DNA of 64,000 nucleotides, taken from assembly GCF_024502345.1 (NCBI RefSeq), contig NZ_JALDNN010000001.1; one strand, given 5' to 3'. This document shows, piece by piece, positions 1,840 through 2,758 of the stretch (positions within the stretch are counted from its first letter, which is position 1; every line of letters begins with the position of its first letter). The notes beneath the pieces were generated by a model that was not told the origin of the DNA, ran no database searches, and saw only the letters and a list, made by a program, of their open reading frames with translations. The position numbers and the translations under genes are program-made. The DNA is from Escherichia coli. Its GTDB lineage: Bacteria; Pseudomonadota; Gammaproteobacteria; Enterobacterales; Enterobacteriaceae.

Positions 1840-2758
1840 GAATCTTGACCTTTTTTGCTGTTATCGCCACTCCCTGCCGTGGAAGTCAGCTTAGAACAAT
1901 GTACTCCCCCAGGACGGTGTTTTGAAGGTCTGCAGAATAAGATTTTGCCAGAGGGGAAGGCTCGATTGTGCTGTTAATAACTTAATAATGACAAAATAAT
2001 GAGGTGTATATGCTTTATATGCAATGTTATATAGTGAATTGTTCTGATTCTTAATTGTAAGTCTGGTTTTTTTATCTGTAAGATAATTGTGTGAAAATGC
2101 CTCATTTAAGAATTCACTAATGAAACGCGATGATGATATTTCCGCATTACGGAGAGTTTAACAGCGTGATGATTTCCGAAGTGTCACAATGGGGGCAAGG
2201 TGTGAAACTATTGTTAAGCGGAATTAATGAATGAGGATGATGCTAATTAATTATTATTTAATATTCAAAAAGGTTTTGATGTGCTTATTAATAATAGAAG
2301 ATTACTTTGCCTAACATAACATAACTTTGCATCAGATAATTCGCAATGACCCTTATAAATAAAAGGTTTTTGGGGTAAAATGTTCGCATAAATGACGGAT
2401 CCCTGCTCTTGATGCCTCCTCACCATTGCTGTTTGTACGTGTTCGCGTATGACCAGCGATGCTGCACGAGAGTGGAACAAGGACTCACATTTACATTTAT
2501 ACAAACACGCGCATGTCATAAATAGAAAAGAGTGAGTAACTTAATAGATATGCGATCCCTGAAGATATATTCTGTGATCTACTTCAGGCATTATAACGGA
2601 ACAATGTGAGTCGCTTTTTTAGTGCAACTCATATGCATTTTTACTTTCGTCCGGGTTCCGGATGAAACTGCCAGGGAGGCACATTACAAATGGAATTGCT
2701 TGTTTGTGTGTGCACAGCATTAACCAGCTCAGTATGAGCCGCCAGTAAGTGATAATAT

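Follow-up and report, generated by a model that had tools for sequence, protein, structure and literature searches.

The 919-bp alaA-lrhA spacer of Escherichia coli: very probably a composite control region of two divergent genes rather than an unannotated gene

Why two divergently transcribed genes should be kept apart by almost a kilobase of DNA with no annotated content is the question raised by the alaA-lrhA locus of Escherichia coli. In the window analyzed here (a stretch of 64,000 nucleotides of contig NZ_JALDNN010000001.1, assembly GCF_024502345.1, in the orientation opposite to that of MG1655), the divergent spacer between alaA and lrhA measures 919 bp and occupies exactly positions 1840-2758. 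Its counterpart in MG1655 (2406642-2407560) is also 919 bp long and carries no annotated feature, and of 5426 complete E. coli genomes 5425 contain the spacer, 5383 of them at full length and with identities of 97-99.9%; in none of these genomes does a RefSeq feature underlie it. A first-pass annotation had read its length and base composition as hints of long 5' untranslated regions (UTRs), silencing by nucleoid proteins, or unannotated small RNAs (sRNAs) or small proteins. The evidence assembled here makes it very probable that the spacer is a composite and anciently conserved control region for the two divergent genes, and not an unannotated gene. For lrhA itself this explanation, a long regulatory region with the UTR as a hub for sRNAs, is already known from published work.

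The length of the spacer is indeed unusual, the five other divergent spacers within the surrounding 50 kb measuring 64-289 bp. The same cannot be said of its composition, which had been described as strongly AT-rich and marked by homopolymeric tracts. The GC content of the spacer (0.379) falls within the range spanned by 16 neighbouring intergenic regions (0.28-0.50), the other divergent spacers nearby are more AT-rich (GC 0.28-0.36), and its A/T homopolymer tracts are modest (six runs of at least 5, the longest of 7). The spacer is thus exceptional in length alone, and its AT-richness is ordinary.

Among the options raised beforehand, the long 5' UTR is the one borne out by published data. 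The mRNA of lrhA has been reported to carry a 5' UTR of 371 nt (Melamed et al.), and the primer SM079 used in that work fuses the +1 of PBAD to ATAAATGACGGATCCCTGCT. This string is found at positions 2388-2407 of the window, and the lrhA transcription start site known from the literature therefore maps to A2388, with 40% of the spacer lying in the transcribed leader. The position of the lrhA promoter (Table 1) agrees with this published +1.

A scan for LrhA with one genome per species returned 80 Enterobacteriaceae loci, and 78 of these, with LrhA identities of at least 74%, have alaA and lrhA side by side in divergent orientation. The spacer is long in all 78 (764-1140 bp, mostly 905-1013 bp), which argues that a long spacer is ancestral to the Enterobacteriaceae. 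Conservation along the spacer is distributed in islands that coincide exactly with the promoters and with the last ~75 nt of the lrhA UTR, the most conserved part being 1860-1927. Over 79 sequences, the -35 element of the lrhA promoter reads TTATAA in 64 and the -10 element fits TAnnnT in all 79, a near-invariant pair which suggests that the distal lrhA start is the ancestral one. The UTR lengths inferred for the same 79 sequences have a median of 400 nt and range from 334 to 587 nt.

Table 1. Features of the alaA-lrhA spacer and flanking genes, in window coordinates; the last column gives mean identity to E. coli along the spacer over 78 taxa.
Feature	Position	Strand	Particulars	Mean identity
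lrhA 5' UTR	2388-2758	plus	371 nt, start A2388, 40% of spacer	
lrhA promoter	2333-2387	plus	-35 TTATAA 2353-2358, 17-bp spacer, -10 TAAAAT 2376-2381	
Promoter-proximal conserved block	2333-2347		CAGATAATTCGCAAT	
AT-rich conserved block	2200-2265		TGTTAAG..ATTAATGA..AATTAATTATTATTTAATATT; -188 to -123 of the lrhA promoter (PlrhA)	
Fast-evolving inter-promoter DNA	1928-2199	none	272 bp, GC 0.35, ~35% identity, essentially unalignable	
Predicted alaA core promoter	1898-1926	minus	-35 TTCAAA 1926-1921, 17-bp spacer, -10 TACATT 1903-1898	
Predicted alaA 5' leader	1840-1891	minus	~52 nt; start ~1891 from invariant -10/-35 pair	
Putative alaA leader hairpin	1866-1890	minus	GCUGACUUCC-ACGGCA-GGGAGUGGC; loop and inner stem invariant	
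Strong hairpin followed by RNA 3' ends	hairpin 2424-2461; ends 2467, 2473	plus	minimum-free-energy (MFE) structure and Term-seq	
Candidate ArcZ pairing site	2665-2681	plus	CUGCCAGGGAGG with ArcZ UUCCCUGG; prediction	
Predicted RprA/McaS pairing site	2707-2720	plus	UGUGCACAGCAU, complementary to UGCUGUGUG common to RprA and McaS	
Small hairpin	2724-2738	plus	GCUCA-GUA-UGAGC, just upstream of ribosome-binding region; in MFE and centroid folds	
UhpU pairing core	2740-2746	plus	CGCCAGU, -19 to -13 (13-19 nt before AUG), complementary to UhpU ACUGGUG	
GUGA and lrhA start codon	2749-2761	plus	GUGA 2749-2752, invariant in 14 genera, 9 nt before AUG 2759-2761	
alaA	622-1839	minus		
lrhA	2759-3697	plus		
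Spacer segment	1840-1885			0.79
Spacer segment	1886-1927			0.70
Spacer segment	1928-2199			0.35
Spacer segment	2200-2265			0.63
Spacer segment	2266-2332			0.42
Spacer segment	2333-2387			0.66
Spacer segment	2388-2684			0.34
Spacer segment	2685-2758			0.68

The conserved end of the lrhA leader is the part to which most of the pairing by sRNAs has been mapped or predicted. Melamed et al. established with compensatory mutants (lrhA-M1 combined with UhpU-M1 restores repression) that UhpU represses lrhA by base pairing; ArcZ and RprA were found to repress it as well, and McaS, which forms the most chimeras with lrhA in RNA interaction by ligation and sequencing (RIL-seq), had no effect. As read from the published gBlock, the lrhA-M1 mutation is C2743G and lies inside CGCCAGU. 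Outside Escherichia, Citrobacter and Salmonella the UhpU site is not conserved, which fits the published view of a recent interaction. Further upstream, the predicted RprA/McaS site encloses an invariant CACAGC (2713-2718) and a Term-seq 3' end at 2709, and the RprA seed finds its best site at 2710-2719 in 67% of 79 sequences, as against 22-26% for shuffled seeds. When the E. coli seeds are used for all species, the positional conservation of ArcZ, McaS and UhpU seeds is indistinguishable from that of shuffled ones.

Short duplexes at the candidate ArcZ site reach -17 to -19 kcal/mol, a range equalled by shuffled UTRs, and the position of the site is not conserved across species; a second ArcZ candidate, at 2709-2722, rises above the controls neither in energy nor in positional conservation. 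Folding of whole-sRNA duplexes was tried and discarded, as it gave meaningless long-loop duplexes no better than those of shuffled UTRs, and short windows behaved likewise. Energy alone cannot place the ArcZ, RprA, McaS and UhpU sites, because shuffled UTRs score as well; the UhpU site was hence placed from the published mutant and that of RprA from cross-species positional conservation. Next to these sites, the invariant GUGA keeps a distance of 9 +/- 0.7 nt to the lrhA AUG and is presumed to be a weak equivalent of a Shine-Dalgarno sequence. The small hairpin upstream of it changes from GCUCA/UGAGC in E. coli to GGUCA/UGACC in Citrobacter and Salmonella, in alignments inspected by eye, and was not called by RNAalifold. 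Applied to 20 genera, RNAalifold detected no consensus structure over the conserved 3' stretch of the leader, the only 5 invariant pairs all falling in the coding sequence (CDS).

The remainder of the leader is a variable body beyond reliable alignment. The E. coli lrhA UTR folds better than its shuffles (z = -3.04), and the strong hairpin near its 5' end precedes two 3' ends reported as 'orphan' in the Term-seq data of Adams et al. (PMC7815308; MG1655 2406933 and 2406927, window 2467 and 2473). Ends at these positions would yield a UTR-derived fragment of ~80-86 nt. The hairpin lacks a U-tract and thus does not qualify as a canonical intrinsic terminator, so that the ends probably arise by trimming or processing and not by intrinsic termination. 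The same study reports a 3' end at MG1655 2406691 (window 2709), scored as Rho-independent, and its tables list no other 3' ends in the spacer, all three lying on the lrhA strand. In addition, coimmunoprecipitation with Hfq has recovered RNAs of ~150 and ~350 nt from 'ig-lrhA-alaA', which were shown to be parts of an lrhA transcript of ~1.5 kb whose level rises in the absence of Hfq (Bilusic et al., PMC4152368). The proposal of small RNAs in the spacer therefore survives in part: Hfq-bound fragments and Term-seq ends do exist inside the lrhA UTR, but there is no independent sRNA gene, as judged by the lack of an Rfam match, a terminator or further 3' ends.

Whether such fragments (from +1 to 2467/2473, or from +1 to 2709) also act in trans, as sRNAs or as sponges titrating McaS or other sRNAs, is a separate matter. 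Hfq enriches the ~150- and ~350-nt fragments and not the lrhA CDS (PMC4152368), the Term-seq 3' ends are discrete and appear in several conditions, with that at 2709 scored as Rho-independent (PMC7815308), and the abundance of McaS chimeras in the face of absent repression led the authors to suggest inhibition of McaS. Yet the fragments were described as 'virtually undetectable in total RNA' (PMC4152368), and the 2709 end falls among the first nucleotides of the predicted RprA/McaS site, upstream of its CACAGC core, so that the long fragment would be deprived of most of that site. The body of the UTR, moreover, is only ~34% identical across genera, unlike conserved trans-acting sRNAs, and the fragments may be mere by-products of decay or attenuation. 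We consequently regard a role in trans as possible but doubtful; it is compatible with the spacer being a composite control region and would add to it. At the other end of the same transcript, the 'primary' Term-seq 3' end of the lrhA mRNA (MG1655 2405672) corresponds to window position 3728, and a terminator-like hairpin (3742-3780, AGCCGCTGGGG...CCCCAGCGGCT followed by T8) begins 13 nt downstream of it; this hairpin escaped the terminator scan, probably owing to a loop longer than 8 nt.

Upstream of the lrhA promoter, the AT-rich conserved block stands out with 63% identity between flanks of 35-42%. Its spacing to the lrhA -35 element is fixed, at 60 bp (interquartile range, IQR, 60-61) and then 65 bp (IQR 65-66), and this rigidity would mark the block as part of the lrhA upstream control region. 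Both this block and the promoter-proximal one are presumed to be sites for upstream regulators, several of which are known from earlier work. Lrp is a direct activator of lrhA according to chromatin immunoprecipitation (ChIP) followed by sequencing, CpxR binds the lrhA promoter, and an OmpR ChIP signal has been found at the lrhA upstream DNA. Systematic evolution of ligands by exponential enrichment (SELEX) with holoenzymes has produced RpoD, RpoH and RpoE peaks in the spacer, and the minor-sigma peak converts to ~374 bp upstream of the lrhA AUG, that is, to PlrhA; in vitro, the lrhA region is transcribed preferentially by the sigma-S holoenzyme. Shimada et al. explicitly list the '920 bp-long lrhA-alaA' spacer with other long spacers in which regulator sites are crowded. 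Our own consensus-motif scans of the spacer (IHF, Fis, CpxR, RcsB, OmpR, Lrp and LysR-type transcriptional regulator boxes) returned nothing or weak matches with multiple mismatches, which were not used, and the 13-mer CTTCCACGGCAGG has near-matches elsewhere in the window at chance level only.

The DNA between the two promoters evolves quickly in sequence. The distance from 1921 to 2228 nonetheless has a median of 306 bp and an IQR of 301.5-310, as opposed to an IQR of 323-366 for the similarly divergent UTR body, and this modest signal suggests that the length of the 1928-2199 segment is moderately constrained despite sequence turnover. Distal promoters of alaA and sites for transcription factors may lie in this segment: an alaA promoter predicted in the literature (TTAAGA-17-TATAAC) corresponds, as placed by eye, to 2054-2026, and the motif scan gave a weak Lrp-like match at 1933-1947. 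The equivalents of the segment in 79 sequences show a 10.5-bp AA/TT periodicity with a pooled power 3x that of shuffled DNA, which exceeds the 95th percentile of the shuffles in 47% of species and is absent from E. coli itself (power 0.08 vs a shuffled mean of 0.18). Curved DNA or phased A-tracts are not claimed here, as E. coli lacks the periodicity and the phase coherence may reflect shared ancestry.

In an explanation by silencing, H-NS or another nucleoid protein would keep lrhA off from a platform whose length is needed for filament nucleation or bridging, and several observations go in this direction: basal expression of lrhA is low, insertions in the spacer raise expression both in E. 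coli and in Serratia (pigU), the inter-promoter segment is AT-rich and length-constrained despite its sequence turnover, and about half of the species display the 10.5-bp periodicity. Nevertheless, the GC content of the spacer (0.38) is ordinary among local intergenic DNA, the genomic-SELEX table that flags HNS at ompC-micF, emrK-evgA and others does not flag it here, and the periodicity is missing in E. coli. The activating transposon insertions are unidirectional, and the study of E. coli by transposon-directed insertion-site sequencing attributed them to read-through from the transposon promoter. Finally, the locus belongs to the core genome, with near-universal presence in E. coli and synteny in 78 taxa, and is not horizontally acquired. 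Silencing by nucleoid proteins, as initially put forward, thus finds no support in the evidence assembled here, and we consider it quite unlikely to account for the spacer.

Toward alaA, the best-conserved stretch of the spacer contains what appears to be the core promoter of this gene. Its two hexamers hardly vary over 70 sequences, GAGTA..TT shows no change in 70 sequences and TTTGAAG and ACAATGTACTC none in 14 genera, and the spacing between 1885 and 1921 is 36 +/- 0.4 bp. The promoter scan did not report this site because it fits only 8 of 12 consensus positions. The invariant TTCAAA-17-TACATT pair leads us to predict the start and the leader listed in Table 1, and the leader so delimited bears a near-invariant AAGG motif resembling a Shine-Dalgarno sequence. 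A conserved hairpin would begin at +2 of the predicted transcript. In its own register 91% of cells are paired over 65 distinct sequences, compared with 30-74% in slid registers; one pair covaries (AU:40/GC:13/GU:9), and another is U.G in 35 and U-A in 26 sequences, a combination valid on the alaA-sense strand only, with the proviso for all such covariation that related sequences can beat shuffles in the absence of structure. A search of Rfam gave no match for the hairpin. The case for an RNA element is decent but not conclusive, and the same bases could alternatively be read as a DNA operator. That the locus harbours in this hairpin an uncharacterized cis-regulatory RNA or operator governing how much alanine transaminase is made from alaA, or else lrhA UTR fragments working as functional sRNAs or sponges (e.g. 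of McaS), is a possibility to which we would give limited credence.

There remains the notion of an independent gene hidden in the spacer, either an intergenic sRNA that has a promoter and a terminator to itself or else a small protein encoded by the reverse open reading frame (ORF) at 2265-2519, by an upstream ORF (uORF) in the UTR or by a 27-aa ORF at 2231-2314. The ORFs are certainly there. The one at 2265-2519 (84 aa), which the first-pass annotation had pointed out, is the sole ORF of at least 60 aa wholly inside the spacer; a 28-aa uORF (2662-2748) is identical in E. albertii, a peptide-like string (LINYYLIFKK) recurs across genera, and three promoter-like sites were found. But all these ORFs are broken in close relatives. 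The 84-aa ORF, which lies on the strand opposite to PlrhA and the UTR and overlaps both, is frameshifted or interrupted by stops in E. coli SCPM-O-B-8794, E. albertii, Citrobacter and Salmonella and was rejected as a gene, while in E. albertii, Citrobacter or Salmonella five small ORFs of the UTR and three upstream ORFs are without their start, out of frame or cut by stops. The recurring 'peptides' (LINYYLIFKK, HITNGIAC) stem from blocks conserved at every codon position, the longest ORF between the promoters (43 aa) is what shuffling yields (44 +/- 13.5), and the three promoter-like sites match the 3.0 expected by chance. The terminator scan found none in the spacer, its sole terminator-like site lying inside the alaA CDS; a search of Rfam over 1500-4400 at E <= 10 returned chance-level matches to miRNA, snoRNA and CRISPR-repeat families, far below gathering scores, and no Term-seq 3' end falls outside the lrhA UTR. 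A hidden gene is therefore highly improbable. Measured against the refuting condition that the first-pass annotation itself had set, the long UTR stands and the independent element fails.

Variation within E. coli offers some additional observations. Nine positions of the spacer set the window apart from K-12 MG1655 (2018, 2144, 2163, 2180, 2186, 2383, 2387, 2417 and 2434); two of them (2383 and 2387) fall between the lrhA -10 element and +1 and another two (2417 and 2434) in the region of the first UTR hairpin; strain-dependent LrhA levels have been reported by a 2026 paper. In E. coli SCPM-O-B-12142 just the first 167 bp of the spacer are left, with the junction at about window position 2006, and IS1 and ISKpn26 adjoin a deletion that has taken out lrhA and the nuo operon and extends up to elaD. 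Matches to the spacer number 5453 places in 5425 records, and the 28 extra ones may reflect insertion sequences within the spacer. E. coli SCPM-O-B-8794, the GTDB species representative, has an LrhA of only 95% identity and a spacer whose nucleotide identity drops to 77-87% in several variable stretches, and looks like a member of a divergent Escherichia lineage rather than a typical E. coli. Outside the species, CACSKA010000019.1, labelled Chryseobacterium sp. 18061, carries an alaA-lrhA locus typical of the Enterobacteriaceae, in which LrhA shares 78% and AlaA 94% identity with the E. coli proteins; this assembly is probably contaminated or mislabelled. On the other flank of lrhA, the lrhA-nuoA spacer (3698-4327, 630 bp) has a median length of 629 bp over 74 Enterobacteriaceae genomes (IQR 626-631, median absolute deviation 2). 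Its overall identity is 63%, rising above 0.85 in blocks at 3938-3997, 4148-4207 and 4238-4297, and it presumably constitutes the promoter and leader region of nuo. Its use as a neutral length control was rejected because, though more length-stable than the alaA-lrhA spacer, it is sequence-conserved as well.

Taken as a composite control region, the spacer very probably works as follows. On the alaA side, a core promoter and a leader with a 5'-proximal hairpin would take up 1840-1926. Beyond them, ~430 bp of upstream DNA would allow Lrp, CpxR, OmpR and LrhA itself to act on the lrhA promoter, and within this stretch only 2200-2265 and 2333-2347 are conserved in sequence, both rigidly spaced from the promoter. 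Transcription from A2388, shown in the literature and mapped here, then produces the long UTR, which we take to be the main reason for the length of the spacer. The variable and structured 5' portion of this UTR (~280 nt) would give rise to the Hfq-bound fragments, while its conserved and largely unstructured last ~75 nt would serve as a landing pad for Hfq-dependent sRNAs beside a weak ribosome-binding site, pairing with which would repress LrhA synthesis. UhpU, for which this has been shown experimentally, represses translation from 2740-2746; RprA is predicted, with comparative support, to pair at ~2711-2720, and the site of ArcZ is uncertain. Repression of LrhA in turn derepresses flhDC, rprA and rpoS, and a single long region would in this manner integrate transcriptional inputs (envelope stress, nutrient state) with post-transcriptional ones (oxygen, Rcs, and hexose phosphate or sigma-28).

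Several points weigh against this reading of the spacer as a control region for both genes. The alaA start at ~1891 is a prediction, and the published one puts the alaA promoter further upstream. An older annotation had a short lrhA 5' UTR (PMC4152368), and lrhA may have a second, proximal promoter. The reading does not account for the poorly conserved 280-nt body of the UTR, and the roles proposed for 1928-2199 and 2200-2265 derive solely from conservation and spacing. Lastly, the duplex energies of ArcZ, RprA, McaS and UhpU are no better than those obtained with shuffled UTRs, for which reason the sites of ArcZ, RprA and McaS remain predictions.

LrhA stands at the top of the hierarchies governing motility, fimbriae, RpoS, capsule and CRISPR-Cas, and the gating of its synthesis thus matters for the lifestyle switches of enterobacteria. 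To the published account of lrhA our analysis adds a coordinate map of the known elements in the window, evidence that the Enterobacteriaceae inherited the long architecture from their common ancestor, along with the promoter and the final ~75 nt of the UTR, and a clear negative for hidden genes. What novelty is left resides in the hairpin of the alaA leader, in the AT-rich block between -188 and -123 and in the possible trans role of the UTR fragments.

The closest parallels to the lrhA side are the long-UTR Hfq/sRNA hubs of rpoS, csgD and flhDC. As in these, the promoter of lrhA lies hundreds of nucleotides upstream of the start codon, several Hfq-dependent sRNAs (UhpU, ArcZ and RprA) pair with the leader, for the most part close to the ribosome-binding site, and the gene encodes a global regulator within the motility, biofilm and stress network. 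In contrast to rpoS, however, all tested sRNAs repress lrhA and none is known to activate it, and the lrhA leader departs from these hubs in being conserved in its last ~75 nt only, with a 280-nt body that turns over, and in binding McaS without effect. For alaA, a hairpin predicted to lie 1-2 nt from the mRNA 5' end, with a stem kept by covariation and by G.U pairs on the sense strand, recalls the 5'-terminal stabilizing stem-loops of the ompA type; it differs from them in that its ACGGCA loop and inner stem do not vary over 70 sequences, which suggests sequence-specific recognition rather than mere 5' protection.

At the level of the whole spacer, lrhA-alaA has been named together with csgD-csgB (755 bp) and nanC-fimB (~1.46 kb) as a long type-A spacer, a class with two RNA-polymerase binding peaks and an association with stress-response regulators, although lrhA has far fewer mapped transcription-factor sites than those two and 40% of its spacer is transcribed leader. 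The arrangement itself, finally, recurs at loci lying outside our comparison set of Enterobacteriaceae, in which alaA is likewise divergent from a LysR regulator: pigU in Serratia, hexA in Pectobacterium and Photorhabdus, and pecT in Dickeya. Intergenic insertions raise the expression of the regulator at these loci too, and the translation of PecT and HexA, both orthologues of LrhA, is controlled by ArcZ.

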